NCBI GenBank assembly: GCA_018401295.1
Contig: JAGYLJ010000005.1
Coordinates: 1 to 52,615, forward strand
DNA: 52,615 nucleotides
Reading direction: 5' to 3'
From: a bacterium
GTDB taxonomy: Bacteria; Patescibacteriota; Minisyncoccia; Phycocordibacterales; UBA12079
Under the pieces are notes generated by a model. It ran no database searches. It had not been told where the DNA came from and saw nothing but the letters and a program-made list of their open reading frames with translations. A program made the position numbers and the translations under genes. This document shows, piece by piece, positions 5,902 through 49,825 of the stretch (position 1 is the first letter of the stretch; each line of letters opens with the position of its first letter).

Positions 5902-5965
5902 AGAATTAAAAAGAAAACTCTCGCTTCTTTGTGCTATTATAGCACATTAAAGCGAGAGTCCCTGC

Positions 5966-6301
5966 TCAATAATAATCGGCCAGTTGGGATAATAAATCAA
6001 CGAAATCCCATTTATTACCACCACTACGACAACCCTTTTCAATCATTTCTTTCCTCATATCCAAATTCTGCGAAGTAGAAATAACAACCTGAGATATTTT
6101 CAACAAGTCAGAGATAAAAGGAATTGTCGATTTCTCCCCCAACCATCCATCCAGAGCGACAGCGAAGAACTTATGATTAGAGGAAATCACAGCTCTTAAC
6201 TCATCTTCAGAACGAGCTACAATAATTTCTGCTTTTTTCCCCAACCGATGAGTAATAAGTTGCTCCCAACGAGCAATGTCTTCCACAATAAGAACCTCCA
6301 C
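5966..6301 (-). CDS. single-domain response-regulator receiver-like protein
   Basis: VLIVED, VALDG, ISTS, G..K pattern of CheY-like receivers; GTG at 6301 follows GAAAGGGGG. Confidence 0.6.
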   Translation of the reverse strand: MEVLIVEDIARWEQLITHRLGKKAEIIVARSEDELRAVISSNHKFFAVALDGWLGEKSTIPFISDLLKISQVVISTSQNLDMRKEMIEKGCRSGGNKWDFVDLLSQLADYY

Positions 6302-6384
6302 TTGAAACACCCCCTTTCAGGATAAAATTAAAAAAGGACTTCTCCTAAAAAGATTTATAACACAATTCTTAAAAAAATCAATTT

Positions 6385-7623
6385 CTAGAAGACCAACAAA
6401 CTTGGAGCAAAAAGAAGTAAAGCACCAAGTATTATCATTAAAATCCCTCCAATTAAAGACGATAAATTAGAGTACTTTTGTCCTACTGCGTAAAACTTAC
6501 TAAAACCGTAAAGGGCTAAACCGAAAATTAAAAAATCGTCAAACATATACGAGAAAGTATATAGAAGTATATAAAGTTGTTCTGTAACCAAACTCAAGCC
6601 ATTTAACTCCAAGATTTTAGTAAAAGCCTGAGGTATTCCAATTGAACAAGCAAACTCAACAACATTCACAGATAAAGCTACCCCGATAACTCCTAAAGCC
6701 GTCAAAATCGTCATCGGTCTATTAATAAGTTTTTTTATTTTTGATTCTGTTTTTGATTGTTTTTCTATATCGGTATTACAAACCAATTCCCCACGTGTCT
6801 TCCAGTATCTATAAAGAAAATAAAAACCTGCTCCAAGAGCCAGTAAACCGATTAACGGGGTTATAAATTCGTCCAAACCAATAAAATCCCACGTTTTAAA
6901 CCAAAAATTCAAGATCAACCAATACATTATGGTCTCTGCTAAAATAAACAAACCAGCCACCTGAAACATCTTTTTTCTATCTTTAACCTGCCATAGAATT
7001 AGTAGAAAGGTCATCAAAACCCACATAGCACAAGGATTAAAACCATCCACCAAACCTAAGATAAACGACAGTGAAAACAAAGAAAAATCTTTCGAATCAA
7101 CTACTCCTAAAAATGGGATGTTAAAATCAAAACCTTTCTGCGGGTCTTTAATAGCTCCTGATTTCGATTGTTCTATCAACCTAATTATTTCCTGACCTGT
7201 TGTTTCAGGAGAATCAAAACCTTGAAAAATATTCTCCCCAATTATAGTGGTTGGAGTAACTTTTGGTAGATTGTATTTGTTGGTCAATAAATCAAATTGT
7301 TGTCTGTTTCCTTCCTGAGCGATATCAACAATAATTAAATTAAAATCATCTCTCTGAGTAATTAAATCCTCAAAAAAAGCCATTTCTTTTGCACAAAAAG
7401 AACAGTCTTCTCTTTCAAAAAAATAAATGTCTACTTTCTCAACTGTGTTTGCTGCTATGGTCTCAGGATCAATAGGTGTTTCAGCTATAGAAACAAGGGG
7501 TATGGCACAGGCAACCGCCAAAGTTAAAATTAAAAAATTCCTTTTTAAAAGGTTGTACCCCATTAAAAATTTATTTTCATTTTTACTCGATTTTATAATA
7601 TTATACTTTAACGGGGTAAACAT
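6385..7623 (-). CDS. glutaredoxin/thioredoxin domain fused to DsbD/CcdA-like membrane domain
   Basis: CSFC motif, then LGLVDGFNPCAMW and VEFACS membrane Cys motifs; true start may be about 7563. Confidence 0.8.
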   Translation of the reverse strand: MFTPLKYNIIKSSKNENKFLMGYNLLKRNFLILTLAVACAIPLVSIAETPIDPETIAANTVEKVDIYFFEREDCSFCAKEMAFFEDLITQRDDFNLIIVDIAQEGNRQQFDLLTNKYNLPKVTPTTIIGENIFQGFDSPETTGQEIIRLIEQSKSGAIKDPQKGFDFNIPFLGVVDSKDFSLFSLSFILGLVDGFNPCAMWVLMTFLLILWQVKDRKKMFQVAGLFILAETIMYWLILNFWFKTWDFIGLDEFITPLIGLLALGAGFYFLYRYWKTRGELVCNTDIEKQSKTESKIKKLINRPMTILTALGVIGVALSVNVVEFACSIGIPQAFTKILELNGLSLVTEQLYILLYTFSYMFDDFLIFGLALYGFSKFYAVGQKYSNLSSLIGGILMIILGALLLFAPSLLVF

Positions 7624-7710
7624 AGTCTTCTTATAATATCACTATTGTATTAAATAATAAACTTGTTAAAATTAAGGGTAACAATTAGCAATTAAAATTA
7701 ATTAAAAAAT

Positions 7711-7944
7711 ATGGATCTTTTAACATCAACAACTACAACAACATTAGGTAGCATTGACCCCACAACTATTCCTCTCTGGATATTGCTGGTTATTATGCTC
7801 TGGGTCTTGCCATGGAAAGGGTATGCTCTTTGGCATGCAGCTCAAAATAAACACAAAAATTGGTTTATAATTTTATTAGTCATCAATACATTAGCAATTT
7901 TAGACATCATCTATATTTTCTTTGTTAGTAAAAAGAAAAAATAA
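7711..7944 (+). CDS. small membrane protein (DUF5652-like)
   Basis: LW..PWKGYALWHAAQN.HKNWFIILLVINTL.IL.IIYIF pattern. Confidence 0.75.
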   Translation: MDLLTSTTTTTLGSIDPTTIPLWILLVIMLWVLPWKGYALWHAAQNKHKNWFIILLVINTLAILDIIYIFFVSKKKK

Positions 7945-7959
7945 AACAATAATCTCAAA

Positions 7960-8465
7960 ATGACACAAAACAGTGCTTAAGCACTGTTTTGTTTTGGTCA
8001 AGCGGAGGGGGTGGGATTCGGTCACTCTTATGGATATTTTATTTCGCAAGCTCATAAAATATCTCATCCCATTGACCTCCACTCGCTCGAGTTCGTCGTC
8101 GCAAGCTCTTCCTCACATACTCGCTCGGTTCGAATCCCTTACTCTCTTCTAGAAGTTAACAAAAATAAATACCTCAGTCGGTATTTATTTTTGTTAATGC
8201 GGAGGGGGTGGGATTCGGTCACAAATCACTAAGTATATTTTTTCGCTTCGCTCAAAATCTACTAAGTGTTTGCGTCCTCCTATTTCCTATCTCGCTTCGC
8301 TCGATAAAGGAAATTTTTTCTTTCAGAAAAACTGGATAAAAAACAAAGCAGTTTGTTTTTTATCCCCGACTCCCTCGCTTCGCTCAGTCCGTCTTTCGAA
8401 TTCCACCCCCTCATCAAAATGTTTGAAATTAAAATACCCCTTAAGGGGTATTTTAATTTCAAATG
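7960..8465 (-). repeat. tRNA-Ser-linked array of two structured elements with duplicated tRNA 3' ends
   Basis: GCGGAGGGGGTGGGATTCG at 8002, 8199 and 8465; AT-rich hairpins at about 7961, 8156 and 8422. Confidence 0.88.
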
Positions 8466-8552
8466 CGGAGGGGGTGGGATTCGAACCCACGGTACAGTTT
8501 CCCGCACTCCAGTTTTCAAGACTGGCGCATTCGACCTCTCTGCCACCCCTCC
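8466..8552 (-). tRNA. tRNA-Ser(TGA)
   Basis: Reverse complement GGAGGGG acceptor, CCAGT-CTTGAAA-ACTGG anticodon arm, long variable arm, GGTTCGAATCC. Confidence 0.95.
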
Positions 8553-8554
8553 AA

Positions 8555-8911
8555 TTAATATTCAATTATCAACAAATCTTTTTCTTGTAAACTTACAGAC
8601 CGACGCCTACATAAACACGTCTTAAATAAATATTCATCACGATTCTTACTCAAAACATAAAGCCAATCATAAGAATCTTCTTCTGTTTTTTTGATAACAT
8701 AGCCCTTTGAATTAGAGTGGATCCTTCTCAAATCAACTTCATTCCCGCTAGTATATTTTACTTGGACTCTTTTTAATTCGTTTCCAACATCAACAACCAA
8801 ATCATAAGAAGCAGACTCCGTTAGAGGTAACAAAACATCCCATCCTAATTTAGTAAAAGTAGATATAGCTTGTGCAACAGCAATATCTCCTTTCCTTTGT
8901 GTTGTTCTCAT
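8555..8911 (-). CDS. group I intron-associated-type PD-(D/E)XK endonuclease (I-Ssp6803I-like)
   Basis: T..KGDIA......F.KLGW.V..P......YDLVVD....LKRVQVK signature. Confidence 0.75.
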   Translation of the reverse strand: MRTTQRKGDIAVAQAISTFTKLGWDVLLPLTESASYDLVVDVGNELKRVQVKYTSGNEVDLRRIHSNSKGYVIKKTEEDSYDWLYVLSKNRDEYLFKTCLCRRRSVSLQEKDLLIIEY

Positions 8912-9340
8912 CTTTCTATTATAAACGGTATAGGCAACCGTTGCAACATATAATTAAAAGATAATAATTATTATACCAAAATAAACACTAAAAATCTACT
9001 GATTATTTCATCATTTTAACAATCCCCTAGGATAAAATTCCAAAACTTGTATTATAATGTAAGATGTAAGATTAATTAATAAAAAATCATGTTATTAGAA
9101 CAAGAGACATCAAACATATTTTTTCTGAAGAAGCTCAACAAAATATGTCTAATTTAGATAAACAAATTCTAATTAAAAAAGCCGAAGCGACCGCTTTACT
9201 AAAATTACAAGGAAAGACCAATAATTAAAGCCAAAATTCTAAATAAACCTCTCTTTGCTTTAATTCCGATAAGAGTTTATACTTAAATAAATGGGTTAAA
9301 ACCTAAATTATTAATTGTTACCAACTAAAAAAATAAAATT

Positions 9341-10653: not shown

Positions 10654-11165
10654 AATATTATATTTAGTCGAAAGTCTCTAATGTCTAAAGTCGAAAGTGA
10701 AAAATTTGCTTCCTAAACCAAAACTTCGTTTTGGTCGGACGAACATCAAAGATGTTTTAGTCGCAAATTTTTTGACTTTATGGACTTTACGGACTTTATG
10801 AACTTCTGACTATATTTATTAATTCATTTTATTAAACAAGATAAATAGTTCGACCCACTGGCTATTCCAAAGCTATCTATAGTTATGAGTATATACCCAT
10901 TAGATTTTAAAGTCAAATGATTTTCTTGTCATCTACTTTTATGATAAAATATTTACCCTGTTAAATAAATTTAAATTTTTATAGAGATATGTTTTATGTA
11001 TATGTGATATAATTAAAAAGAGATAAGAAATCCTACACAAGACATACAAAAAATTTAAAGTTAAGATTTGACGAAAGCAAGAGATAAAATAGTATAAATA
11101 AAAAATATTATTAATTAACAATTAATATTTAGATATAGAGTCAAATCTTATTTAACAGGGTGAAT

Positions 11166-11655
11166 ATGGAAAAAGAAATAAAATGGCAGGCTTTTGAATA
11201 TGAACATACAACAAAATCCGCTGATTGGTTTTGATTGTTTGGATTATAGCAATCGGTATTGCAATCACAAATTCTCATTTATTTAACAACCCTCCTCTTT
11301 GGAAGATGTATTCTTATTAGTGCCTTTAGTCTTTCCATTTACGCAAGCAGAAAACCAGATTTATTAAATTTTACTTCCTCTCAGAGAGAGGATTTCTCAT
11401 CAAAGGGAAATTAGTACCATTTTCTGCAATACAATCATTCTGGGTAGAAAAGACCACCCGACCTCAACAAAGATAAACGGGCAAGGAAAGATCATTCTTC
11501 AATCCCAAACTAAAACTATCCCATATATTATCATTCCTCTATCAAAAGATGTTGACAAATTGAAGAGATAAGAGAGTATCTATTAAAACATCTTAAAAGA
11601 GGAAGAACACCAAGAAACTCTATTTCAAAAACTTTTCGAGAAATTAGGTTTTTAA
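11166..11655 (+). pseudogene. frameshifted CPR-type membrane hypothetical protein
   Basis: Begins MEKEIKWQAFEYEHTTKSADWF, then repeated indels; fragments ..IQSFWVE.. and ..FEKLGF* remain readable. Confidence 0.6.
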
Positions 11656-11665
11656 TTTTTTAAAT

Positions 11666-11737
11666 GTCCCCATAGTTTAATGGATAGAACGTGACTTTGC
11701 GGAAGTCATGATGTAGGTTCGATTCCTACTGGGGGCA
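11666..11737 (+). tRNA. tRNA-Arg(GCG)
   Basis: GTCCCCA/TGGGGGC acceptor, TGACT-TTGCGGA-AGTCA anticodon arm, GGTTCGATTCC. Confidence 0.9.
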
Positions 11738-11839
11738 CAAATTCGTCAAGACGGTAAAAAGCCACTGCTCTACATGTACCCATGTCTTGACCACAAAAAG
11801 GACCTGAACACACTTCAGTTCTTTGTATTTTTATCTATG

Positions 11840-12356
11840 TTATTTTGTTTTATTAAACTAATTATGTAACTTTTAGGAACTGCCCCAAAATTTCTAGAAT
11901 CTTTACTGTCCGTTATATTGTCACCGAAAACAAAACTGTATCTTTGGTAAATATCCATCTTCTGGTATATAGTCCTAACATTTTTATTTCATTAGGCTAA
12001 AAATATAAATCTGTCCTACTGAATTTTTCATTACATCCCCATTTATCAGTAAATTTTTATCTTATTTCAAGGAAATCTCTTTATCAGTGGCCTTTACTAC
12101 CTTTATTAATAAATTTTCATTGGCAGAATGCTTAAATAAAACAATATCACCTCTTCTCTACTGTGTTATTTTTATAATAATCATCAACAACATTTACCAC
12201 TTCACCATGTGAAAACATTGGTTGCATAGAACTTCCGTTCACTATAATCTAATTTTTGCCCAACAATTTCTAAACAGAATTGTTTTGAAAGAAAAATACT
12301 TAATACAATAACGAACACTGTAAATAAGATTAAATGTATCTTTTTTTGTTATGCAT
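11840..12356 (-). pseudogene. frameshifted signal peptidase I (S26) homologue
   Basis: Manual translation gives VNGSSMQPMF, RGDIVLF..LLIKVV and VFGDN...SKDSRNFGAVP in different frames; 3' end approximate. Confidence 0.7.
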
Positions 12357-12419
12357 AGAGTTGATTATATCATTTTTAATCTGATTTTTTAATAATTTTA
12401 TCACTTATTATTTAGCATC

Positions 12420-13606
12420 TTCTAAACCTTGAAAGAAGGGGAAAATGCTTTTTTATGCCTTTTGTTATACAAATGTATTTAGCAAAATCAAAAGAGAAAG
12501 ATTTTTATAAACAAGTTGACACAGTTATAGTTACAGAAAATTTATAAAAACAACCTTAAATATGAATTTAAAACTGCTAAAAATTCTTTAGTTGATTTTC
12601 AGTTATCTCTCCATTTTGATTTTCTATAATCTTGTTCCATTCCATTATCTTTTTATAAAACTTCTTTTATTTCTTTGCCCAATATAAATACGGTAAGGTT
12701 TAATTATTACCCCTAAAAATGAAACCCCTTAGTAAAAACTGTAAATAAATTTTTTTAGGGTGAATTTCCAAACTGCCTTTTTCTTAAATAATTGTGCTGA
12801 TTTTCGGAATTTAGAGATTTTTAAATTATTCTTTTATCTTGATGAACAAAACCATATCATCAACATACCTTATGTAATATTTACACCTTAATTAGTTTTC
12901 ACAAAGTGGTCAAAATCATTCAGGTAAACATTTCCAAAAAGTTGCGAGGTTAAATTACCAATCGGTAGACCCTCCCTGTTTAGTACAAAATAGGGATTTA
13001 GTTTTCGGTAAACCTACCCAATCACTCCCTTTACCTCTAATACAAAACAATGTTTTGGTTGATCATGAAAGATATTTAAATTGATTAAATGAAGTAATAA
13101 ATCTTTATTAATATTCAATTGCCCACCAAAACGATCAATCACTTTTTCTACTTTTTTGAAGAAAATTTCTATCAATCGACATAAAATACCCTTTAATATC
13201 TAATTTCAACACGTAACAATCTTGAGAATAATTTTTAGAGCAAGTACAAATAAAATAATCAAGTCTTTAATTCCTAAAGAAACTCCTTTTTTAAGTCGGC
13301 AACTATAGTAACTATCATAAATAAAAAGCCGTTCAAAAATGGATTTAAATGATTATAAATCAAATGATGGACAATTTATCTCTAAAATTGTCTAAAAATT
13401 TCTTCGTTGCACGGGGACTAAAAGACACAAAACACAAAACTACGAGAGATATCGTATTGATTATTTATAATTTCCTGATAAAGTTGAAATAAATTTTTTT
13501 CATAATTCATTTCAAAAGCTAAACAGTCTGAAGATTTTCTTTTATTTTTTCGGGCATCATAATAGGCCTTAAATAAATCTACTAAAAGTTTAGGTGGTTG
13601 TTGCAT
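12420..13606 (-). pseudogene. DGR reverse transcriptase, multiply frameshifted as given
   Basis: LFKAYYDARKNKR N-terminus, YVLKLDIKGYFMSID, GLPIGNLTSQLFGNVYLNDFDHF (about 12903-12971), RYVDD (YVDD 12856-12867), FLG; 3' end approximate. Confidence 0.9.
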
Positions 13607-13619
13607 ATATTTTAAATTA

Positions 13620-13646
13620 AAGAGCGGATGCTTCGCATCCGCTCTT
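13620..13646 (-). other. hairpin between TR and RT
   Basis: AAGAGCGGATGC-GAA-GCATCCGCTCTT, 12-bp perfect stem. Confidence 0.75.
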
Positions 13647-13664
13647 AATAATTCACCAGTCCTA

Positions 13665-13840
13665 TAGACAACGGACGGAAAAGCCGTTCGCCTGATCGTT
13701 TGGGTTGCGGTTGACAGTAGAGTTGCTAGAGTTCAGGTTGCGTTTCCAAGCATTAGCCCCTGAGATAGAAGACGACCAAAAGTTCGCGTTCGTACCCAAA
13801 TTGTTGAAAGACCCATCGGTATTGCGGTTGCCGGAAAGAA
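13665..13840 (-). repeat. DGR template repeat (TR)
   Basis: 176-bp ungapped match to 14439-14614; AAC-rich in the target frame; all 20 mismatches are A in TR. Confidence 0.97.
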
Positions 13841-14019: not shown

Positions 14020-14364
14020 TTATTCACAAGATTTTTTCCAAGCTGATAATTGTTTACTGATTGATTCTATTTGTTCATTTAATATTATAAATTTTTTTAA
14101 ATTTATTTGTTTTAAATCTTTTATTAATCTTAAATATAATCGGATGGTTTCAGTATTTTTCTGAGCAATAATAATTTTTTCTTTTCTTTCAACAATTTCT
14201 CTATTGCTAAAATAAATATTACTTAGCAAGTCTACCACTTCCTTTTTAATACTTTCACCTAAAGTATATTTATAATCCTTAGAAAAATTATTGCTAAAAA
14301 TAAATAAATTTAATAACAATTCGTAACTTGTTCTATAAACTGGGAGATTAGAATAAATAGACAT
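14020..14364 (-). CDS. avd: DGR accessory variability determinant (four-helix bundle)
   Basis: LPVYR.SYELL...F.KDYKYTLGE.IK..IRL.LRL.KDL..I.KQL.AW; located between target and TR. Confidence 0.88.
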   Translation of the reverse strand: MSIYSNLPVYRTSYELLLNLFIFSNNFSKDYKYTLGESIKKEVVDLLSNIYFSNREIVERKEKIIIAQKNTETIRLYLRLIKDLKQINLKKFIILNEQIESISKQLSAWKKSCE

Positions 14365-14429: not shown

Positions 14430-15932
14430 TCAGTTCTTTAGACAACGGACGGAAAAGCCGCTCGCCTGATCGCCTGGGAAGCGGTGGACAGTAGAGTAGC
14501 TAGAGTACAGGTAGCGTTCCCAAGCACTAGCCCCTGAGATAGAAGACGACCAAAAGACCGCGTACGTACCCAAACCGTCGAAAGACCCACCGGTACTGCG
14601 GTAGCCGGAAAGAAGACCTTCAAAACCTGAGGAACCCCCCGTTTTTAAAGCTGTTCCTGCAGGATCACAGTCCCATACCCCTGAACGGCTTGTGTCACAA
14701 GTCCCTGTTGATAAATATTGATCAAGAGTGTCCTGTTCTGCGTCTGTAGGAATATGCCAACCAGCAGGGCAAATTCCTTGAGCTCCTGCTGTTTCAACAT
14801 ATTGCATCGCTTCATCCCAATTGTAGAAACCGCCGTAAGTAGTACAGTTAGCATCACTGTTGTCATAACACCACTTTTCTATTGTTCCGTTGTTAGTCGG
14901 TTCGGTAGCTCCTGAGGCTAATTTTGTTCCGATGTTTAAGTTTTCAGAGAACCAACACTGTGCCCCTATTTGGACAGTTGCGTAACTTTGCCCTCCATGA
15001 CGAATTGTTTTTCCACAACCTGTTTCTTCCACAATCCAGTTACTTCCATCACAATAGGTTATGGCACTGGCCCCTTCATCCCAACCTAATTGGTTTTCTA
15101 TCCCAGCTGTACAAGTTGTTCCGTCTGGCCACAATTCTGTTTTACTGGTTCCTGAAGCAGCGTCTACATAAGCTTTGGTAGCTACGTGGTCATCGGCTGT
15201 AGGAGTATCAGCAATGATATTTCCATTAATTTCTAATTTAGCGATTGGCGTAGTCGTCCCCACCCCCACATTCCCACTTGTATCAATAGTCATCTTAGAA
15301 GTCCCATTAGTAATAAATCTTAAGTCTGTATTAGTGTAGGTACCTATGAGACCTTGGGAGGTTCCTGACCAGATACCTGTGGTAATAGAGTTAGTGACAT
15401 CTGTGACTTTGAGAGCTTGTTGTCCTGTACCTGATAGTTCTAAGAGAGCTGAAGGAGTGGAGGTACCTACTCCGATGTTGCCTATGTTGTAATAGATATC
15501 AGAAGAGCCACTCCATTTACCCATATCTCCTACAGCATCAATCAGAGTACCGTCAGGTAATTGGAAACCTTCTGTGGAATAGATTTTACCTACTACTGAT
15601 AGCTTCTGTACTGGAGTGGTAGTGCCTACTCCGACATTCCCTGTGTTGTAATAGAGGTTATCTCCTAGTTTAGTCCAGAGGGTAGCTAAAGCTGTAATGA
15701 TGTATTCTAGTCTTTCTATGAGACTACCGTCATTGTTAGCTGTAACGGTGGAAGAATCAAAGTCATTGTCTGCATTGTTAGCTCCGAGGATGTTTTGTGG
15801 GAAGTCTTGATTGGAAGAAGCTGGACCCACTGTGGGTTCGATGAAGGCAGCTTGGGTGGTATTAGTAACTACAATGATTAACATCATTGTAGTTAGTAAT
15901 ATCACTGTTAAATTTCCTAATCCTTTGTGCAT
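14430..15932 (-). CDS. DGR target: secreted GNVG(I/V)GT-repeat protein with C-terminal Fibrobacter major paralogous (C-type-lectin-fold) domain
   Basis: Signal peptide; YATVQIGAQCWFSENL, YGGFYNW, GICPAGWHIPT..E, FWSSS, GFSVRCLKN. Confidence 0.93.
   Translation of the reverse strand: MHKGLGNLTVILLTTMMLIIVVTNTTQAAFIEPTVGPASSNQDFPQNILGANNADNDFDSSTVTANNDGSLIERLEYIITALATLWTKLGDNLYYNTGNVGVGTTTPVQKLSVVGKIYSTEGFQLPDGTLIDAVGDMGKWSGSSDIYYNIGNIGVGTSTPSALLELSGTGQQALKVTDVTNSITTGIWSGTSQGLIGTYTNTDLRFITNGTSKMTIDTSGNVGVGTTTPIAKLEINGNIIADTPTADDHVATKAYVDAASGTSKTELWPDGTTCTAGIENQLGWDEGASAITYCDGSNWIVEETGCGKTIRHGGQSYATVQIGAQCWFSENLNIGTKLASGATEPTNNGTIEKWCYDNSDANCTTYGGFYNWDEAMQYVETAGAQGICPAGWHIPTDAEQDTLDQYLSTGTCDTSRSGVWDCDPAGTALKTGGSSGFEGLLSGYRSTGGSFDGLGTYAVFWSSSISGASAWERYLYSSYSTVHRFPGDQASGFSVRCLKN
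14439..14614 (-). repeat. DGR variable repeat (VR)
   Basis: 3' end of target gene; differs from TR only at TR adenines. Confidence 0.97.
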
Positions 15933-17476: not shown

Positions 17477-17551
17477 ATGCAAAGAGATTACTATATTTTA
17501 TAAAAAAAAGCAATAAGAAAGGCGGTCCAGAGGACCGCCCTTAAGTAAAAA

Positions 17552-17941
17552 TTATTCATAGGTCTTCACCAAAAGAGGATCTCTATAGCCACACCTCTTA
17601 CCCTTCAAACGACCAGTTGCATCGGCCTCACAGAGCCTTTTATAAAAAAATTCTGCTTTTGTGTGGTTATCAAACCAGAAGTAAAAGCGCTTCTTAGAGA
17701 ACCATCCCTGAAAGAGACATTCGACTGAATACTGCCCAATTTTCTCTCTAAGATATTTTAAGAGAAAAGAATTGTCTTGATGACCTGTCCTTAAAATAAT
17801 CTGATCGGAATACCAAGAGAGAAAAAATTTTCCTTCTTCCCCATCCACGAGAACTTTCCCCGAAACTCTCTTCTTTTGTTTATTCACATTAACAGAAAAA
17901 AACAAATCTCCCAAAAAATCATCGGCGTATTTCTCAAACAT
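17552..17941 (-). CDS. orphan hypothetical protein with strong SD and own terminator
   Basis: 129-aa ORF; AAGGAGG upstream; GGCGGTCC hairpin at about 17519-17542. Confidence 0.7.
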   Translation of the reverse strand: MFEKYADDFLGDLFFSVNVNKQKKRVSGKVLVDGEEGKFFLSWYSDQIILRTGHQDNSFLLKYLREKIGQYSVECLFQGWFSKKRFYFWFDNHTKAEFFYKRLCEADATGRLKGKRCGYRDPLLVKTYE

Positions 17942-18038
17942 TAGTTTTCCTCCTTATAATTAGAGATTAACCATATAAAAAAGAGCGACAAAACTTTTAT
18001 ACTTTCTACTTTTCCTTTTTTAATCTATACTTATTTAT

Positions 18039-18608
18039 ATGATTAGTCAATTAACAGGACAAATTAGTTATAAAAGTGATAACTACACTATCCTAAACGT
18101 TTCGGGGATTGGTTATAAAGTCTTTGTTACAATAGAGATATTACAGGAATTACAATCAAATAAACCAGAGGATAAAATAACACTCTGGACTCACCTAGCT
18201 GTTAGAGAAAATTCTCTTGACCTATATGGTTTCCTAAACAAAACAGACTTAAACTTTTTTGAAATGCTCATTACTATCTCGGGAATAGGTCCTAAAACAG
18301 CTCTAGGAATTTTAAATGTAGCCACAGTAGATACTTTAATTTCTGCTATTTCTTCCAAGGATACAAGCTACCTGACAAAGGTATCCGGTATTGGCCAAAA
18401 AAATGCTGAAAAAATAATATTAGAACTAAAAAATAAAATAACCGATATTGAGAGCAATAATCCAAACAACCAAGATGACATTGATGTTATTGATGCCTTA
18501 AAAGCGTTAGGTTATTCTGGAAGAGACGCTATGGAAGCTCTCAAAAAAATACCTAAGACAATCACAGATGTTGGTGGTAAAATTAAAGAAGCTATCAAAT
18601 TTCTCTAA
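18039..18608 (+). CDS. ruvA: Holliday junction branch migration protein RuvA
   Basis: MISQLTG, GIGYKV, HLAVRE..LDLYGF, ISGIGPKTAL, GIG.K.AEKIILELK, ALKALGY. Confidence 0.96.
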   Translation: MISQLTGQISYKSDNYTILNVSGIGYKVFVTIEILQELQSNKPEDKITLWTHLAVRENSLDLYGFLNKTDLNFFEMLITISGIGPKTALGILNVATVDTLISAISSKDTSYLTKVSGIGQKNAEKIILELKNKITDIESNNPNNQDDIDVIDALKALGYSGRDAMEALKKIPKTITDVGGKIKEAIKFL

Positions 18609-18668
18609 AGAAACTATATAGTTTCTTTAAAGAAACTTGAATTAAAAATGATAAATTAAAAATTAAAA

Positions 18669-19022
18669 ATGACTGAAAAAGATAATTTGATACAAAAGAA
18701 AAGTTTTGATTTTGCTCTAAAAATTATTTCTTTATACAAAGAGCTTATTGAACAGAAAGAATATATAATATCTAAACAGTTAATTAGGAGCGGGACAAGT
18801 ATCGGGGCGAATATAGAGGAGTCTCTCGGAGGTCAAAGTAAAAAAGATTTTGTCCACAAGATGACAATATCTTTGAAGGAATCGCGAGAGACTAGATATT
18901 GGTTGAATTTGTTAAAAGAAAGTAATCTAGTTAATATAAATATTGATAGATATCTAGTTGAAATTAACGAAATAATATGTATTTTAACAAAAATAATAAA
19001 AACATCGTTAAAAAATTTATAA
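18669..19022 (+). CDS. four-helix bundle protein (23S rRNA IVP / TIGR02436-like)
   Basis: KSFDFALKII..ISKQLIRSGTSIGANIEE...QSKKDF..K..I.LKE.RET.YWL. Confidence 0.9.
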   Translation: MTEKDNLIQKKSFDFALKIISLYKELIEQKEYIISKQLIRSGTSIGANIEESLGGQSKKDFVHKMTISLKESRETRYWLNLLKESNLVNINIDRYLVEINEIICILTKIIKTSLKNL

Positions 19023-21298: not shown

Positions 21299-21473
21299 TA
21301 AAATTTTTAATTTCGTAATTTTTCCACCCAAGCCTACCTGCTGATAGGCAGGACGAATCAACCTCGGGCTAACAATTTTTAAATAATTTTTAATGATTAA
21401 ATGTTCAATAAAAAAAGTGGTTCTTGCAAAGCAAGAACCACTTTTGACATAAAGTCATGGGTTTCTTCTTTCT

Positions 21474-21872
21474 TCAATAGGGGACTTCTTCGATAGAAAT
21501 AGGAAGAATTTCAGTGGCTGTGATCAAATCAGCGTGTTCTCTCAATGCTTTAGCTCTTCTGTTGAGATACTTCGCTATTCGCGGGCCTTCGTTGATTAGA
21601 AATTGTTCATATTTATGAGCTGTATCGCAACAGCAACCCCAAACGATTTCTTTTCCGCCGACGTTAAGCGTCCACACAGTACTGTCCCAATGAATATAAC
21701 TATCTGGATCAACCTTTTGTTTTTTCTGAATATCTTCAAGTTCTCCCTCTTCCCAATTCTGTGATTCATCCACAGAGAAGTAAGTTCTTCCACAAGCACA
21801 AACACGGATTTGCCCTCCGCCATGTGAGTCAAACACATCTCCAAACAACTTGGAACACTGTTCTTTTTCCAT
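21474..21872 (-). CDS. orphan Cys-rich hypothetical protein with perfect SD
   Basis: CACGR and GCCC motifs; AAAGGAGGTGAT upstream; terminator hairpin at about 21412-21444. Confidence 0.7.
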   Translation of the reverse strand: MEKEQCSKLFGDVFDSHGGGQIRVCACGRTYFSVDESQNWEEGELEDIQKKQKVDPDSYIHWDSTVWTLNVGGKEIVWGCCCDTAHKYEQFLINEGPRIAKYLNRRAKALREHADLITATEILPISIEEVPY

Positions 21873-21982
21873 AAAATCACCTCCTTTCTTTGTTTAATTT
21901 AAGAACGACAAATCTATAAACAAACTAACATAAATAAAAAAGAACGTCCATCAAAAAAAGTGATAGCCACCCTTTTTTCTTC

Positions 21983-37605: not shown

Positions 37606-37756
37606 ATTAGGTAGCATTATAGCTAATTTTGACTAAAAAGCAACATTATTAGAACCAAACTCAATCTCCTGCTGGACAATAACCAATTTCTATGATATAC
37701 TGTTCTAAGAAGTTAGTTCTTTTTTCATAAATCTCGAGGAAAGGAGGTGATGAGAG

Positions 37757-37807
37757 ATGAAGAGGTTCATGATACCAAGAGTAGCCCATTGTGGTGAAGG
37801 CTGCTAA
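37757..37807 (+). CDS. putative 16-aa peptide MKRFMIPRVAHCGEGC
   Basis: AAGGAGGTGAT SD at 37741, upstream TATGAT -10, downstream GC-rich terminator. Confidence 0.45.
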   Translation: MKRFMIPRVAHCGEGC

Positions 37808-37810
37808 ATG

Positions 37811-37849
37811 CGGGGAGATTTCGACTTTGTCGGAATCTCCCCTTTTTTT
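37811..37849 (+). terminator. rho-independent terminator
   Basis: GGGGAGATTTCGAC-TTT-GTCGGAATCTCCCC followed by T7. Confidence 0.8.
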
Positions 37850-37910
37850 ATCCACTTAAAATAGAAAAAAATAATCCAATGAAAATTTTTCTATGTTATA
37901 ATTTGTACTA

Positions 37911-38945
37911 ATGATAAATAAAAAAAATGATTTTGATTTTGTTGCAATCGGTGACATTGTCATCGATGCGTTTATTAATCTAAAAGCCGCCCGAGTTCGT
38001 GACGAAAAAGGAAGGCCCGAACTCTGTCTAAGCTTTGCTGATAAGATCCCTTACAATTGGGTTGAAGTTGTGGCAGCCGTTGGAAACAGCGCTAACGCCA
38101 GTGTTTCCGCTAGTCGCCTAGGATTAAAATCAGCTCTAGTAGCTAATATCGGAGCTGATGATAATGGAAGAAAGTGCCAAGAAGTTTTAAGAAATGAAAA
38201 AGTCGCAACTGATTTTATTAAGATTCATCCTAACGAAAAAACCAATTACCACTTTGTTTTATTATACGAAGCTGATAGAACTATTTTAGTTAAACACGCT
38301 GAGTTTGATTATCAATTACCAGACATCAAAAAACCAAAATGGATTTATTTAAGTTCTCTAGCAGAGAACTCGCTTCCCTTTCATAATAAAATCACAGAGT
38401 ACCTAAAAGAAAACCCTGAAATAAAATTGTCATTCCAACCTGGGACTTTCCAGATGGAATTAGGTTACGAAAAGTTAAAAGATATTTACCAAGCTGCTGA
38501 AATATTTTTCTGCAACGTTCAAGAAGCAAAGAGAATTTTAGGAGAGATAAAACCAATGATTTTAAATGACTGTCTTAAGATTGATAAAAAGAAAACTATT
38601 ATCACACTGCTAAATGAAATGAACAAATTGGGACCAAAAATTGTAATTATTACAGATGGACCTGATGGAGCCTATGCTTTCAATGAAGGAAAAACTTTTT
38701 TCATTCCTATGTATCCAGACAAAAGACCTCCTATAGACCGTACAGGAGCTGGTGATGCCTTTTCATCTACAGTCACCAGTGCTCTTGCCTGTGGAAAAAA
38801 CTTAGAAGAAGCTCTTCTCTGGGGTCCAATTAATTCAATGTCCGTTGTCCAATATGTCGGTGCCCAAAAAGGGTTGCTCACTCTAGAAAAAATAGAAGAA
38901 TATCTAAAAAACGCCCCGGAAGAATATAAAGTCATTACAATCTAA
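37911..38945 (+). CDS. PfkB family carbohydrate kinase
   Basis: AIGD..ID, G.SANA.V..SRLGL, IITDGPDGA, IDRTGAGDAF. Confidence 0.92.
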   Translation: MINKKNDFDFVAIGDIVIDAFINLKAARVRDEKGRPELCLSFADKIPYNWVEVVAAVGNSANASVSASRLGLKSALVANIGADDNGRKCQEVLRNEKVATDFIKIHPNEKTNYHFVLLYEADRTILVKHAEFDYQLPDIKKPKWIYLSSLAENSLPFHNKITEYLKENPEIKLSFQPGTFQMELGYEKLKDIYQAAEIFFCNVQEAKRILGEIKPMILNDCLKIDKKKTIITLLNEMNKLGPKIVIITDGPDGAYAFNEGKTFFIPMYPDKRPPIDRTGAGDAFSSTVTSALACGKNLEEALLWGPINSMSVVQYVGAQKGLLTLEKIEEYLKNAPEEYKVITI

Positions 38946-39146
38946 AAAACAGCTACATATATAGCTGTTTTTTAGATTGTAAAATTTTATAATTTTTAAT
39001 TTTATAATTTTGTAAATAATTTTTAATGACTAAATTTTTAGCCCCGGCAACGAAAATTTACTTTGCAAATTTTCGTCGAGTTTAGAAATTAGAAATTTTG
39101 ATTTATTTAAAAATTACAAAATTAAAAATTAAAACCCTCATAGCTA

Positions 39147-40091: not shown

Positions 40092-40178
40092 AAACAGATT
40101 ATATAACACAAAAAATAATTTGGAAATAAAAAAAGGGAGCCACAAGGACTCCCTTTGAACAGTCTGTTGTTTGAAAGA

Positions 40179-40391
40179 TCAAACAGCTGCTCGCCTCTTT
40201 GCAGAGGCCAAAACTTTTTCTTGAAGAATTTCAGTGGACGTTTTTTCTTTTTCAACTTCAATCCCAGCTTTTTTATATTCCGCACGCTTCAGACACTTCC
40301 TGATCGGAAAGTTATCTACCGAAAAGTAAATCCTTACTCCTATCCTATCAGCCTGCTCATTTGCCCTTCTTACCAATTCGCTTTTTTCCAA
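40179..40391 (-). CDS. orphan small basic protein (70 aa, TTG start)
   Basis: GAAAGGAG upstream of TTG; AAGGGAG..CTCCCTT terminator at about 40131-40156. Confidence 0.45.
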   Translation of the reverse strand: MEKSELVRRANEQADRIGVRIYFSVDNFPIRKCLKRAEYKKAGIEVEKEKTSTEILQEKVLASAKRRAAV

Positions 40392-40458
40392 ATTATTTTT
40401 TCTCCTTTCTACTTTTAATAAAATTAAAAACAAAAAAACCGCCCAACCGTTTCCTCCT

Positions 40459-40602
40459 CTACTTTCGCAACTTCTCGAAATCAGGACAAGATTCTGTCTC
40501 TGGAGAAGAAACCGGTTCATCTCTTTTCTGGCACCAAGGGACAAAACAAGGTCCCATAAACTTTTCCCCCCGAAATTGACAATTCTGACAATTTTCTTCC
40601 AT
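40459..40602 (-). CDS. orphan 47-aa Cys-rich protein (MEENCQNCQFRGEKFMGPCFVPWCQKRDEPVSSPETESCPDFEKLRK)
   Basis: Manual translation, below ORF-track cutoff; AAAGGGG SD; CxxC plus three more Cys. Confidence 0.55.
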   Translation of the reverse strand: MEENCQNCQFRGEKFMGPCFVPWCQKRDEPVSSPETESCPDFEKLRK

Positions 40603-40758
40603 GATTTTCCCCTTTTTTTATATTTATTTACAAGAACACTCTAATTAACATGATAACACATTTCTTAAAAAAGATAAAGAGGAGCTAGTCGTTGACTCAC
40701 TCCTCTCTCTTTTCTTATTGTTTGCAATACTTTTCAGTACTCAGACTACTGAAAAATT

Positions 40759-41538: not shown

Positions 41539-41752
41539 CCATGGATTATAACACAAAAAAGCAGAATATTATATATCCTGCTTTTTTTGAAACTTTTTCT
41601 TTTGTTTCGTTCCTCGGGCGACCATTTTAATGGTTTAGCCCAATGATCTCAACTTAAGGTTCCGAGATCAACACCCTTTTGCATTAGATGCAAAAATCAA
41701 CCGATTAAGCTTCTTTAATTTGCCTTGTGAACAAAATAAATAAGCATGTTCA

Positions 41753-43246
<1,494 letters not shown>

Positions 43247-43495: not shown

Positions 43496-43520
43496 TTTTT
43501 AAAGAACGTGTATCATTATA
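43496..43520 (-). promoter_or_regulatory. rRNA promoter -10 and boxA-like antitermination site
   Basis: Minus strand TATAAT-GATACA-CGTTCTTTAAAAA about 250 bp upstream of 16S. Confidence 0.6.
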
Positions 43521-47326: not shown

Positions 47327-47338
47327 TTATTATTTAAA

Positions 47339-48328
47339 TTAATATCTTCTACGGAAACCTTTCCTTACTATTTTCCACATAAAATATAATAAAACTAAAA
47401 TTGAACCTAATAAAATCCACCAACTATTGAATATATAAATTAATATGGCAAGAACAAAACTATAAACCTCTTTTAACTCTGGAATACTTCCAAGGATAGA
47501 AGCAACATAGGGGTTTCTGTTTTCATCTATTTCTGGAACACCCTTTAAAGTTTCTTCCTTTTTTGATTGAGCTAATTCCTCATCAACCTTATCCTTCTGT
47601 TTTTCTAAAAAATCCTTAGTATTCCCTACAGTTTCTATGGTTTTTTCTTTAGCTATATTAGCCAATTCCTTACTTTTTCCTACAACATTTTCAATAAAAG
47701 TATTATCTTCCGTGTCTTTATTCCCATTCGTCTCTAACTTTTTTTCTGATGTCTGAGATTCTGTGACTTTTTCCACAACGACTGGTTTATCAAAGATAAG
47801 AGGATTGGTCCCATTTTTTTCTTCCTCTTTATCAGTAAGACCATCATCGTCATCATCTAAATCGTCTTTGTTCCCTAAACCATCACCATCTGTATCTAAA
47901 TCAACCTCGTAGGTCTCAGTTATAGAGGTGCGTGCCTCTAGATTAATAACTTCTGGTTCTTTCCCAATTTCAATCTTTTTTGTATTTGAAATTTCAACAG
48001 AGACATTATGTTTACCATAGGTTGTTTTCCAATCTGCCCACTTTTCTATTAACCTTCCATTAACGATAGAAAAATCTGATTGCCCTAGTAAGGAATCATT
48101 ACTAAAAAATTTAACCGTGCCTGTGATATCAAAACCAGATTGATTTTGAATAACAGTATAAATACGAATTTCTTCTCCTGCAAAAAAAGGTGTTTTAGAA
48201 TACCAAAGCCCATTTACAAAACCAGCATTAAAGCCCGCTTGAGCAACAGAACCCATTAACCCCCAAAATAAAATTGTTAATAGAAAAACTTTTGACGATG
48301 TTTTCATTTGTACCATATTATACAACAA
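47339..48328 (-). CDS. surface protein with Ig-like domain, Ca-binding TSP3-like repeat and C-terminal TM anchor
   Basis: Signal peptide; DTDGDGLGNKDDLDDDDDGLTDKEE..GTNP; C-terminal TM followed by basic tail. Confidence 0.75.
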   Translation of the reverse strand: MLYNMVQMKTSSKVFLLTILFWGLMGSVAQAGFNAGFVNGLWYSKTPFFAGEEIRIYTVIQNQSGFDITGTVKFFSNDSLLGQSDFSIVNGRLIEKWADWKTTYGKHNVSVEISNTKKIEIGKEPEVINLEARTSITETYEVDLDTDGDGLGNKDDLDDDDDGLTDKEEEKNGTNPLIFDKPVVVEKVTESQTSEKKLETNGNKDTEDNTFIENVVGKSKELANIAKEKTIETVGNTKDFLEKQKDKVDEELAQSKKEETLKGVPEIDENRNPYVASILGSIPELKEVYSFVLAILIYIFNSWWILLGSILVLLYFMWKIVRKGFRRRY

Positions 48329-48407
48329 TTATTTTTAATAAAAAAATCCAATTCAAAATTAACCTATAATTTACTTATAGCACTCGGAAGTTGGACCTCC
48401 AAGTTGA

Positions 48408-49325
48408 TTATTTTAAAAAAACAGAAACTATGTCTCTAATTTTCTTAACATCCGATAATTCAAACCACTGAATTCTTTCATCTCTTTTAAACCAAGTCAT
48501 TTGCCGTTTTGCGTACCTTTGTTCTGATTTAATTGATTCTTCTATAAATTCTTCTTTTTTGATTTTATTTTGTAGATACAAAACTAAATATTTATGAGCC
48601 AAACCAATTTCAGAAAATCTTTCGTAAGTTAATCCTTTTTTGTGTAATTCTTTTGCCTCTCCCACAATCCCTTGTTTTACTCTTATCAAAAATCTCTTTG
48701 CAATTCTATCTTTTAAAATATCTCTGTCTGTCTTTATCCCAATCTGCAAAACATCCCATTTGGTAATCCGATTACCAAATGACACGGATTTGGTAATCGG
48801 ATTACCAAATAAAAATGATTGAGCAACTTCAATGGCGCGGATAAGGCGACGAGGATTATTTGCATCAATTGTATTTGCTTTTTCTGGATCCAGTTTCTGC
48901 AATATCGCAAATAGCTCACTTGGAAACCGAGTTTCCAAGTGAGCACGGAGTTCTAGATCGGGCTTAACTTCAGGAAAGATTGTACCATCCACGATAGACT
49001 GAATATAAAAACCCGTGCCTCCGCAAATAATCGGCAACTTCCCTCTTTCCAAAATATCTTCAATTTTTTCTTTAGCTAATTTTTGAAAATCTAAAACTGT
49101 AAAAGTCTCCTGTGGATTAATCACATCTAAAAGATAATGCGGGACTCCTTGCATCTCATCTGGAGTAATTTTCCCAGAACCAATATCAAGCCCTTTATAA
49201 ACTTGCCTTGAATCAGCTGAGATGACTTCCCCATTAAATTGTTTAGCCAAACTAACAGCCAAATCACTTTTGCCTGAGGCAGTCGGACCGAGGATAACTA
49301 AAATTTTGTTTTTATTCTTTTGCAT
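48408..49325 (-). CDS. miaA: tRNA dimethylallyltransferase
   Basis: ILGPTASGKS, ISADSRQVY.GLDIGSGK, GGTGFY, NPRRLIRAIE, YAKRQMTWF. Confidence 0.96.
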   Translation of the reverse strand: MQKNKNKILVILGPTASGKSDLAVSLAKQFNGEVISADSRQVYKGLDIGSGKITPDEMQGVPHYLLDVINPQETFTVLDFQKLAKEKIEDILERGKLPIICGGTGFYIQSIVDGTIFPEVKPDLELRAHLETRFPSELFAILQKLDPEKANTIDANNPRRLIRAIEVAQSFLFGNPITKSVSFGNRITKWDVLQIGIKTDRDILKDRIAKRFLIRVKQGIVGEAKELHKKGLTYERFSEIGLAHKYLVLYLQNKIKKEEFIEESIKSEQRYAKRQMTWFKRDERIQWFELSDVKKIRDIVSVFLK

Positions 49326-49412
49326 AGATAAAAAGTAGCATAACTTTTATTAAAATAAAAAGCACTTCCAAAAAGACAGGGAGTGCTTTGTTCGTCAGAG
49401 GATCCTCTCAAA

Positions 49413-49712
49413 TCAGGAGTAAATTATGAGAAGATATGTACCTTTACAGCATTTAACGTCAGAGATCTGCCCTATCAAGTTTTCTTGGCCCATCCTTACT
49501 GCCGAAAGAGCTGCCTGACAAAACGAGTCAACAGATTTTATGTCATAATTAGACGATATGATAATTTGTCCAATACCCCCCGAAGGTAAAGCTCTAACAA
49601 ATGACACAACCTCTGCCAATGCTTCAAAAAATTCATGTTTTGTCACATCTCCGCTTTCCAAATAGGCAGCACGAATTAATGGCTTTCTTACCTCAAGCAA
49701 TTGTTTTAACAC
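49413..49712 (-). CDS. orphan hypothetical protein with strong SD
   Basis: GTG 7 nt after AGGAGG; GTGCTT..AAGCAC hairpin downstream; start uncertain. Confidence 0.5.
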   Translation of the reverse strand: MLKQLLEVRKPLIRAAYLESGDVTKHEFFEALAEVVSFVRALPSGGIGQIIISSNYDIKSVDSFCQAALSAVRMGQENLIGQISDVKCCKGTYLLIIYS

Positions 49713-49825
49713 CCCCTTTCCTCCTCTCAAGATTAAAATGAACAAAAAACCCAAAATCAATATAAAAGAAAAAATAAATTAAATCAAGGATTTTGTTTGA
49801 CAAAATACAATAAGGTAATAGAATT

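Follow-up and report, generated by a model that had tools for sequence, protein, structure and literature searches.

The contig JAGYLJ010000005.1 (GenBank assembly GCA_018401295.1), a stretch of 52,615 nucleotides from a bacterium of the Patescibacteriota that is hereafter called the window, raises the question of why a cell whose 16S rRNA has lost the anti-Shine-Dalgarno (anti-SD) sequence carries genes led by strong Shine-Dalgarno (SD) motifs, and of what could read these motifs. The original prediction, made from the letters of the window, had pointed to six solitary units (u1 to u6) lying between housekeeping genes. In the present analysis, all six units were found to be members of a class of genes in which GGAGG lies about 7 nt before the start codon, and to which about 5-10% of the genes belong. 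The presence of this class is established, as are its accessory nature, its distinct composition and the conservation of its SD in orthologs; its members are mostly small genes.

Genomes and gene calls

The window is contig C23 of its own genome, G000, a bin of 619 kb in 27 contigs (about 33% G+C, 77% complete), and the genome set of 41 consisted of G000 and 40 relatives. Among the latter, G009 is a closed genome of 752,630 bp from the same family, which was analysed in full, G007 is a relative with 15 contigs (782 kb), and G001, G002 and G003 belong to the same genus as G000. The proteins encoded in the window are of the housekeeping kind known from Parcubacteria and other members of the candidate phyla radiation (CPR), and include ribosomal proteins, Mur ligases, PolA, RuvAB, SecDF, ThrRS, DUF5652 and bAvd, as identified with Pfam; Rfam detected one 16S gene and six tRNAs. 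Genes were called with a simple picker of longest, non-overlapping open reading frames (ORFs), which selected 714 ORFs in G000. Starts were called "confident" (n = 406) when the ATG was the first start codon, lay at most 15 codons from the upstream stop and opened at least 80 aa. Depending on the definition, from strict to loose, 43-77 genes of G000 and 87-141 genes of G009 were counted as SD-led.

Partial 16S genes from other CPR-like organisms, one apparently with an insertion, are found on three small contigs of the bin (C10, C11 and C20). Two of the 16S tails on these stray contigs are readable, GGATCAATTAAC... and GGAATAATTAATT..., and both are also without CCTCC. Because of the stray contigs, the key statistics were redone on the nine large contigs only.

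The 16S rRNA tail

The two features on which the question rests are as follows.

41753..43246, minus strand: 16S rRNA gene (Rfam, 1357 bits)
about 41748-41766, minus strand: 16S tail past helix 45, reading GGAUUAUUUCAAAUUGAAC, without CCUCC

On the minus strand, the 3' end of the 16S gene of the window reads ...GGTGGTCGTGGATTATTTCAAATTGAAC, and the final tail, GGAUUAUUUCAAAUUGAA, does not contain CCUCC. Past helix 45 the sequence is GGATTATTTCAAATTGAAC, compared with GGATCACCTCCTTA in other bacteria (canonical tail as quoted in PMC6107228). Zero occurrences of CCTCC were found within the 16S gene of the window. A search with the 16S 3' region matched 30 of the 41 genomes, and 26 of the 30 loci returned held the helix-44/45 anchor; all 26 readable ends have tails like GGAWTATTTCAA that lack CCTCC, one of them being from G000 and the others from 25 relatives within its genus, family and order. 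Exactly one 16S anchor, again with a tail lacking the anti-SD, is present in the closed genome G009, and likewise a single one in G007. The description of this 16S as devoid of an anti-SD was therefore correct, and a second 16S with an anti-SD elsewhere in the genome, which the original prediction had named among the findings that would refute it, does not occur in the closed relative.

A search for the ribosomal protein uL1 (PF00687) that covered four relatives, the closed G009 among them, but not G000 itself, gave no match, and the protein was detected in each of 14 control genomes. A subgroup of the Parcubacteria without the anti-SD and uL1 has been described by Tsurumaki et al. (2022, RNA 28:1041; PMC9297842), and the absence of the anti-SD, together with the failure to find uL1, assigns the present lineage to that subgroup as it is delimited in the main-text passages. 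The loss of the anti-SD is real and old, and it is already known rather than new.

Several other candidates were rejected during this analysis. No downstream 16S exon with CCUCC was detected, since a CACCTCCTT-like tail does not occur within 3 kb past the 16S in G000, G009 or G007; one bare CCTCC lies about 370 nt beyond the 16S end of G007, in a context that is not that of a tail and is not conserved. Counting the exact 13-mer GGATCACCTCCTT (76 of 301 genomes class-wide) proved unusable as a survey of 16S tails. In G000 the 13-mer (C1:86691-86703) falls within cyclophilin-like coding sequence (IQGGDP), on its reverse strand, so that a match to this 13-mer may come from coding DNA and not from a 16S. 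A second pattern for the tail, CGTGGAWTATTTCAA, matched 3 of the 301 genomes and was too strict.

Start regions of the bulk genes

Upstream of the 406 confident starts of G000, the frequency of G is only 0.04-0.16 at positions -20 to -1, and that of A is 0.5-0.6 at -11 to -3, with A at -3 and T at -1. This low G and high A content indicates that the bulk genes are without an SD, as had been proposed for the core genes of the window. A TAnAAT sequence starting at -16 to -12 was observed 66 times among 405 G000 starts, and a similar peak is present in G009. A -10 box that ends about 6-8 nt before the start codon is the mark of leaderless transcription, and the bulk genes have it; the position of the TAnAAT box thus implies many leaderless mRNAs. 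Examples in the window can be seen at 37890-37913 (PfkB) and 17483-17510 (S20).

The SD-led class

In the window, the pattern GGAGG-N5-9-RTG occurs 19 times, compared with 6.6 +/- 2.9 times in shuffled sequences, and none of 100 shuffles reached 19. The motif is also sharply positioned throughout the genomes. Within -80 to +60 of the 406 confident starts of G000, 23 of the 63 GGAGG sequences begin at -14 to -9, with the mode at -12 (10 sequences). The same peak contains 19 of the 54 GGAGG sequences near 484 starts of G009, where none was found at -30 to -15, and 26 of the 77 near 515 starts of G007. The separate expression class that the original prediction had proposed from six loci thus extends over the whole genome and recurs in two relatives, of which one is closed.

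The genes of the class differ from the others in distribution and in composition. On the large contigs of G000, a reciprocal best hit in G009 was obtained for 5 of 43 SD-led genes compared with 284 of 540 other genes (p 1e-7). The median G+C content (GC) is 0.390 in SD-led genes and 0.333 in the others, and the median G+C content at third codon positions (GC3) is 0.374 and 0.250, respectively (p about 1e-14). The composition gap holds among genes that have no ortholog (0.390, n = 38, versus 0.330, n = 256), and both the accessory and the compositional pattern are repeated in G009. In this closed genome the SD-led genes are dispersed, single or paired. No paralogy was found among the SD-led proteins.

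Of 60 flagged SD-led genes, 40 were compared with Pfam, which gave matches for 16 and none for 24. The matches comprise YcaO-nitroreductase, rSAM-SPASM, ABC exporter, C10 peptidase, GT1, C5 DNA methylase, MFS and IS110 proteins, and also Big_1, OmpA, PAS, LysM-DPBB, NUDIX, a sigma-54 DNA-binding piece, DUF3850 and Phd. Seven SD-led genes, including those of OmpA, the ABC exporter and LysM-DPBB and several without a family match, lie in C21:7741-22073 of G000, which may be an island. A thymidylate kinase-like gene of G009 (305460-306107; N-terminus MFITLEGGEGAGKTT) and its G007 ortholog are also SD-led and have a raised GC3; as this gene is of a housekeeping type, the class does not consist of orphans only.

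Conservation of the SD between orthologs

The comparison of G009 and G007 yielded 461 reciprocal best hits, 379 of them with co-located start codons. When the SD was defined as a GGAG, GAGG or GGGG core 4-11 nt upstream of the start, it was present in both members of 8 pairs, in one member only of 3 pairs and in neither member of 368 pairs (8/10 versus 1/369; odds ratio 1472, p 4e-14). In seven of the eight concordant pairs the proteins are 33-59% identical and the ungapped identity of the flanks (-60 to -19) is 0.24-0.40, which we take as close to random given the base composition; the eighth pair, a 51-codon ORF beside the 16S, is uninformative. Most of the conserved SD-led pairs of G009 and G007 also retain the raised GC3. 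The comparisons of G000 with G009 and G007 contributed little, giving one concordant and three discordant pairs among 243 + 243, after pairs whose alignment starts beyond residue 40 had been dropped, the LysM pair included.

This LysM-DPBB gene (C21:21531-22073 of G000) was followed separately. It has matches in 10 of the 41 genomes, and nine loci were inspected, one of which is cut by a contig end. In all eight copies that could be evaluated, GGAG or GAGG lies 5-9 nt before the ATG, the copy of G040 being counted only with its third candidate start. The identity to the G000 protein is 77% within the genus and 44-51% in another genus of the family, and GC3 is 0.34-0.49 in seven family members compared with 0.20-0.30 in the ribosomal protein genes of the window. 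The conserved protein carries a signal-peptide-like N-terminus of its own. For the ABC exporter encoded beside it, only paralogs of about 30% identity were found within the family.

Decay of the SDs in relatives, which the original prediction had also named as a result that would refute it, was thus not seen, the motif being conserved in 8 of 10 ortholog pairs and in 8 of 8 LysM-DPBB copies. Since the SD has been kept while the flanks were randomised, and since the distinct composition persists, simple neutral relics do not fit. Either something in the cells selects for GGAGG, or the families are imported again and again.

The six units of the window

The units and the signals that accompany them are listed below.

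5966..6318, minus strand: u1, 111-aa receiver-domain-like orphan, with SD-like GAAAGGGGG at 6318-6310
5914..5962, minus strand: terminator hairpin of u1 (-28.7 kcal/mol, z -7.6), followed by UUUUCUUUUU
17552..17955, minus strand: u2, 129-aa orphan (ORF 17552-17941), with AAGGAGGAAAA at 17955-17945
17964..18050, minus strand: leader and promoter of u2, with GCTCTT at 17986-17981 and TTGACT-N17-TAGATT at 18050-18022
17518..17542, minus strand: terminator of u2, the terminator-like site ranked first, with 11 pairs (7 G-C)
21474..21891, minus strand: u3, 132-aa Cys-rich orphan (ORF 21474-21872), with AAAGAAAGGAGG(TGAT) at 21891-21880
21896..21954, minus strand: leader of u3, with two GTTCTT words (21945-21940 and 21906-21901)
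21413..21445, minus strand: terminator of u3, a 15-pair stem followed by a T run
37673..37842, plus strand: u4, complete small cassette with promoter, leader word, SD, ORF and terminator
40459..40637, minus strand: u5, 47-codon Cys-rich ORF (40459-40602), ATG at 40602
40132..40544, minus strand: ORF overlapping u5, 121 codons in another frame (40179-40544), with terminator at 40156-40132
49413..49743, minus strand: u6, 99-aa orphan (ORF 49413-49712), GTG start at 49712
49359..49389, minus strand: hairpin of u6, weak, with U-rich tail (-15 kcal/mol, z -1.9)

The existence of six solitary units was confirmed in general, with the exception of u5, whose proposed extent, 40179-40602, is not one frame. 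Here either of the two overlapping frames may be real, or the gene may be frameshifted. Strong SDs precede u2 (AAGGAGG, 7 nt upstream of the ATG), u3 (site AAAGGAGGTGAT), u4 and u6, and G-rich variants precede u1 and u5. In u4 the promoter TGGACA-N17-TATACT (37673-37701) is followed by GTTCTT (37716-37721), the SD GAGGAAAGGAGG + TGAT (37736-37752, core GGAAAGGAGGTGAT), an ORF of 16 codons (MKRFMIPRVAHCGEGC, 37757-37807, plus strand) and a terminator (37812-37842). Upstream of u5, AAAAAAAGGGGAAAA (40619-40605) includes AAAGGGG before the ATG, and GTTCTT is found at 40637-40632; upstream of u6, GAGAGGAGGAAAGGGG occupies 49728-49713 and GTTCAT 49743-49738. The downstream hairpins that had been described for every unit were recovered by a terminator scan for u2 to u5 and as a strong fold for u1; that of u6 is weak.

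The units are of mixed age. In G001-G003 the gap between the S20 and RuvA genes is 10-70 bp, compared with 487 bp in the window, where it contains u2; miaA and thrS are 93 bp apart in G001 and 58 bp apart in G002, compared with more than 500 bp in the window, where u6 lies between them. This absence of u2 and u6 at the syntenic sites of same-genus relatives fits acquired cassettes. The u2 protein is found in one of the 41 genomes, its own. The ORF of u1 extends over 5966-6301 with a GTG at 6301, or over 5966-6310 with an upstream GTG at 6310 (GC 0.39). It has an ortholog in G002 (60-62% identity) with GAAGGGGGTGATTGAAGTG retained, where GAA(A)GGGGGTG(A/T)TT(G/C)AAGTG is conserved and the remaining upstream region is not; part of this stretch may belong to the coding sequence, should translation begin at the upstream GTG. 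The ortholog of u3 in G012 is syntenic (after the SpoU methylase gene), 54% identical and preceded by GGGGG 6 nt before its ATG; u3 is a pseudogene in G006 and is absent from three same-genus genomes and from G008. Because u1 is shared with G002 and u3 is syntenic in G012, the units cannot all be recent. The proposal of recently acquired single-gene cassettes is therefore supported in part: it fits u2 and u6 and agrees with the lineage-specific, atypical character of the class, but u1 and u3 are older.

The GC of the units is 0.37-0.45, compared with the genome median of 0.333. No match at or above the curated cut-off was found in Pfam, PHROGs, NCBIfam or PADLOC in a scan that covered all units except u4; the only sub-threshold rows were those of u2 to nqrA (21 bits, cut-off 321) and of u3 to a PHROG (E 0.009). 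As 15 of the 52 scanned ORFs of the window have no Pfam match, the lack of a family match is not unique to the units. The orphans gave no usable match in the ESM Atlas, no relatives of u2, u3 and u6 were found in viral contigs, and no mobility genes or repeats flank the units in the window.

Promoters and leader word

A sigma-70-type promoter, TTGACW-N15-19-TAnnnT (W represents A or T), precedes 25 of 98 SD-led genes versus 28 of 848 others in G007, and 26 of 88 versus 19 of 758 in G009; in G000 the numbers are only 3 of 33 and 14 of 545. The -10 box of the SD-led promoters mostly lies 42-83 nt from the start codon. Aligned leaders of G009 gave the consensus TTGACA-N17-TATAnT-N6-AGAAA...GAGG-N5-ATG; this alignment comprised 17 of the 26 leaders, nine with a -35-to-ATG span outside about 74-89 nt being omitted. 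The top enriched 6-mer at -100 to -17 is TTGACA in G007 (18/98 versus 25/849) and in G009 (21/88 versus 19/758), and GTTCTT in G000 (9/33 versus 14/545).

The word GTTC[AT][TC] was found at -80 to -20 of SD-led and other genes, respectively, in 10 of 33 and 20 of 545 (G000), 12 of 98 and 34 of 848 (G007), and 10 of 88 and 20 of 758 (G009), and reverse-complement and permuted control words were flat in the three genomes. In G007 and G009 the word sits 12-20 nt past the -10 box. When only genes with the TTGACW promoter were considered in G009, it was observed in 7 of 26 SD-led and 0 of 19 non-SD genes. The stricter word G[TC]TCTT is not enriched in G009 (2/112 versus 26/734 and 1/88 versus 24/758). 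A hairpin at the 5' end of the leader, formed by AGRAA and GTTCY, was considered and rejected (mean z -0.13 to -0.54, the same as in the controls). The GYTCTTT-like leader motif of the original prediction is present at the places where it had been described, and SD and leader word co-occur above chance upstream of SD-led genes; as a bare word, it occurs in the window 31 times where 31.1 are expected.

The leader motif had been likened to a boxA-like sequence that lies upstream of the 16S gene of the window.

43497..43508, minus strand: boxA-like CGTTCTTTAAAA in the 16S leader, 6 nt after TATAAT, with GTTCTT at 43507-43502

The consensus of boxA, the Nus-factor antitermination element of rrn operons, is GCTCTTTAACAA. 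The 16S leader of G007 contains GTTTCTTTGAAAAC, and that of G009 has a weaker match to the boxA-like motif. The likeness lies in the position of CGTTCTTTAAAA directly after the 16S promoter and of GYTCWY words early in the SD-led leaders. The words of the SD-led leaders differ from boxA in being short and much nearer to the promoter than an rrn boxA is known to be, and in G007 they are not specific to SD-led genes. Judging from these positions, the GTTC word is probably an early-leader element of the TTGACW promoter class; its resemblance to boxA is real, and its identity with boxA is unproven.

Other features of the window

A diversity-generating retroelement (DGR) lies on the minus strand, with template/variable repeats at 13657-13840 and 14431-14614 (with 14020-14364 and 14430-15932). 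The repeat is 184 nt long and 88% identical according to the repeat finder, 162 of 184 alignment columns being identical, and about 20 of the 22 mismatches are at adenines of the downstream copy by manual count. The variable copy forms the 3' end of a gene for a protein of 500 aa, in which a Fib_succ_major domain was identified, and the two copies are separated by a bAvd gene. On the same strand, a patch of 2.6 kb at about 11100-13730 has a G+C content of 0.29 and no ORF of at least 60 aa within 11121-13418. A reverse transcriptase (DIKGYFMSID, GLPIGNLTSQLFGNVYLNDFDHF) and a signal peptidase I-like gene are readable in it in frame-split pieces, which are either broken genes or local indel errors.

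An element of about 150 nt with a palindromic structure (38983-39134) was observed between the PfkB and transketolase genes, and it has several both-strand matches in G008 and G012. Shorter stretches with multiple matches are located at 18637-18678, 21370-21410 and 50063-50176.

Explanations of the SD-led class

Judging from the sequence comparisons, we consider it somewhat probable that the units represent a lineage-wide minority class of imported cassettes which are expressed by the cell itself and whose SD is kept by selection. According to this proposal, the 16S would have lost CCUCC long ago, and most genes would initiate from leaderless or A-rich mRNAs. The genes of the class would have entered by horizontal transfer, bringing along their classical signals, each as a cassette with a sigma-70-type promoter, a leader often with GTTCWY, AGGAGG about 7 nt before the start and an intrinsic terminator. 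They would be transcribed and translated by their own cell, with the SD retained by selection. The SD could have as its partner the C-to-U-mutated tail, by weak in-register pairing of GAGG to CUUU with UGAU as an extension; alternatively, a protein or another RNA that binds GGAGG could serve.

The pairing is conceivable because the former CACCUCC has been changed from C to U, so that GAGG(UGAU) can pair with CUUU(AUUA) via G.U. The site of u3 would form nine pairs with its own tail, three of them G.U, at -7.1 kcal/mol, compared with -19.8 kcal/mol for the canonical tail; the plain AGGAGG of u2 reaches only -1.8 kcal/mol with its own tail. The claim that this ribosome cannot pair with the SDs of the units was therefore too strong for GGAGGUGAU-type sites. 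As judged by eye from the list of sites, the UGAU extension is not favoured by SD-led genes. It is conceivable, if doubtful, that anti-SD-less Parcubacteria read SDs without CCUCC, and that a regulon of accessory genes, which keep classical promoters, SDs and a codon composition of their own, has a translation channel to itself in this way. Such a CCUCC-free route might use a protein, ribosomal or accessory, a different site in the rRNA, or wobble pairing with the C-to-U-mutated tail.

Several observations weigh against the reading of imported cassettes with a selected SD. No partner of the SD was found. When a new SD matched to the altered tail was looked for, the duplex energies of ribosome binding site windows with their own tail were no better than those of control windows. 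GAAAT and TGAAA, the perfect complements of the tail, have no positional peak, and the enrichment of AAATAA upstream of starts is no greater than that of its permutations. If pairing with the tail were important, GAAA-type sites should evolve easily, and none of them peaks; in the bulk genes, the old SD has not been replaced by a new one. CsrA and bS21 were each above the cut-off in none of four genomes, and an inspection by eye for an intergenic small RNA with CCUCC in G009 gave nothing convincing. There are only 10 informative ortholog pairs, and, of the seven diverged ones, four have local synteny and three have none. Among G007 genes with a TTGACW promoter, the GTTC word is equally frequent with and without an SD (4/25 and 5/28). 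No donor of the units was identified, u2, u3 and u6 having one, two and zero homologs, respectively, in a protein database of 5.8 billion clusters. Finally, the gene calls are home-made, the looser lists of SD-led genes include false positives, as seen from discordant pairs at internal TTG or GTG starts, and the related genomes are not independent samples.

The genes could instead be neutral relics, recent imports from SD-using donors whose SD has no function and has not decayed, or is maintained by shuttling through an SD-using gene pool. The enrichment of the class among lineage-specific genes, its atypical GC and GC3 (0.5-0.68 in some members of G009), the functions of a mobile type in it (IS110, DNA methylase, Phd and enzymes for ribosomally synthesized and post-translationally modified peptides), the absence of u2 and u6 from the syntenic sites and the lack of synteny in three of the seven conserved pairs all speak for this. 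We regard it as unlikely in view of the SD being retained in 8 of 10 ortholog pairs despite flanks of random identity, of the LysM-DPBB SD in 8 of 8 genomes with identities that track genus membership, of u3, which is syntenic in two genera with a G-rich site in both, and of the failure to find donors. In another explanation, GGAGG would be the binding site of a regulator of an accessory regulon, either a protein or a C-rich small RNA, and not a docking site of the ribosome. This would agree with a motif that is conserved without an rRNA partner and with the regulon-like sharing of a promoter type and a leader word, but the spacing is sharp, with a mode of 7 nt, exactly as in ribosomal SDs, the four genomes searched have no CsrA above the cut-off, and the intergenic CCTCC sequences of G009 are, by eye, mostly reverse strands of SDs or of terminator stems; we consider a regulator improbable.

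The original prediction had also suggested that the units are mRNAs formatted for the ribosomes of a host cell, which would translate them once RNA or DNA had been transferred, much as with T-DNA. Indirectly, this is in line with promoters, SDs and GC3 values that depart from the style of the genome and match those of ordinary bacteria, and with the conservation of the SD. However, the genes are dispersed singly among housekeeping genes, no borders or clustering were seen, there is no known transfer mechanism, and several of the products make sense inside their own cell, namely the transposase, the DNA methylase, the MFS transporter and the LysM protein, which is of a secreted type and has its own signal-peptide-like N-terminus; the suggestion found no direct support and appears very improbable. 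An artefact, in the form of mis-binned foreign contigs or of a second 16S with an anti-SD that is missing from the bin, is hardly credible and has largely been refuted already. The bin is indeed only 77% complete and contains the stray 16S contigs C10, C11 and C20, but the SD-led units, the SD-less housekeeping genes and the 16S are interleaved on one contig of 52.6 kb, the statistics hold on the nine large contigs, and in the closed G009, whose only 16S is without an anti-SD, the class is found again.

Comparison with known systems and significance

In the anti-SD-less Parcubacteria of Tsurumaki et al. (PMC9297842), SD helices are presumed not to form, according to the main text. The present lineage shares with them the absence of CCUCCU from the 16S end, the failure to find uL1 in four relatives and a small CPR-type genome; it differs in that a minority of its genes has canonical promoters and conserved canonical SDs, a feature that the main-text passages of that work do not describe. 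The survey of Amin et al. (2018; PMC6107228) reports that genomes without CCUCCU have no dominant SD motif upstream of their ORFs. The result for the bulk genes is the same here; that survey, however, scored the dominant motif of each genome and concluded that SDs are absent, and a positionally sharp minority of 5-10% would escape such a search.

The Bacteroidia, whose ribosomes are described as "blind" to the SD and in which a few genes, for example rpsU, bear one (McNutt et al. 2023, PMC9976891; PMC13000457), resemble the present case in having bulk genes without an SD, upstream adenines and a small set that retains strong SDs. According to these reports, the Bacteroidia retain an anti-SD hidden by bS21, bS18 and bS6, and thus a latent partner, whereas here CCUCC is absent from the rRNA. 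The units are also similar to acquired ORFans or genomic islets, being patchy, small, of atypical G+C content and without family matches, between conserved neighbours. They differ from these in having no flanking mobility genes or repeats and no donor, and in a translation signal that is conserved although the host should not read SDs. With canonical SD initiation they share a GGAGG-type motif 5-10 nt upstream and its conservation between orthologs, but not a CCUCC in the cell's own 16S. A conserved SD-led class in anti-SD-less CPR bacteria was not found described in the literature accessible to us, with subscription journals and supplements outside its scope. The loss of the anti-SD is known, and the conserved SD class is new on that known background.

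In an organism that has lost the anti-SD, SDs are commonly regarded as irrelevant; here, a coherent minority of the genes is distinguished by a sharply positioned SD, which orthologs conserve, in no fewer than three genomes that have a single 16S without CCUCC. If its conservation reflects function, the selection of start sites in these bacteria would have a second reader of GGAGG. If it reflects gene flow, the class would mark the imported fraction of CPR genomes, in which foreign signals outlast expectation. Either way, gene callers trained on the bulk genes would assign wrong starts to these small genes or miss them.

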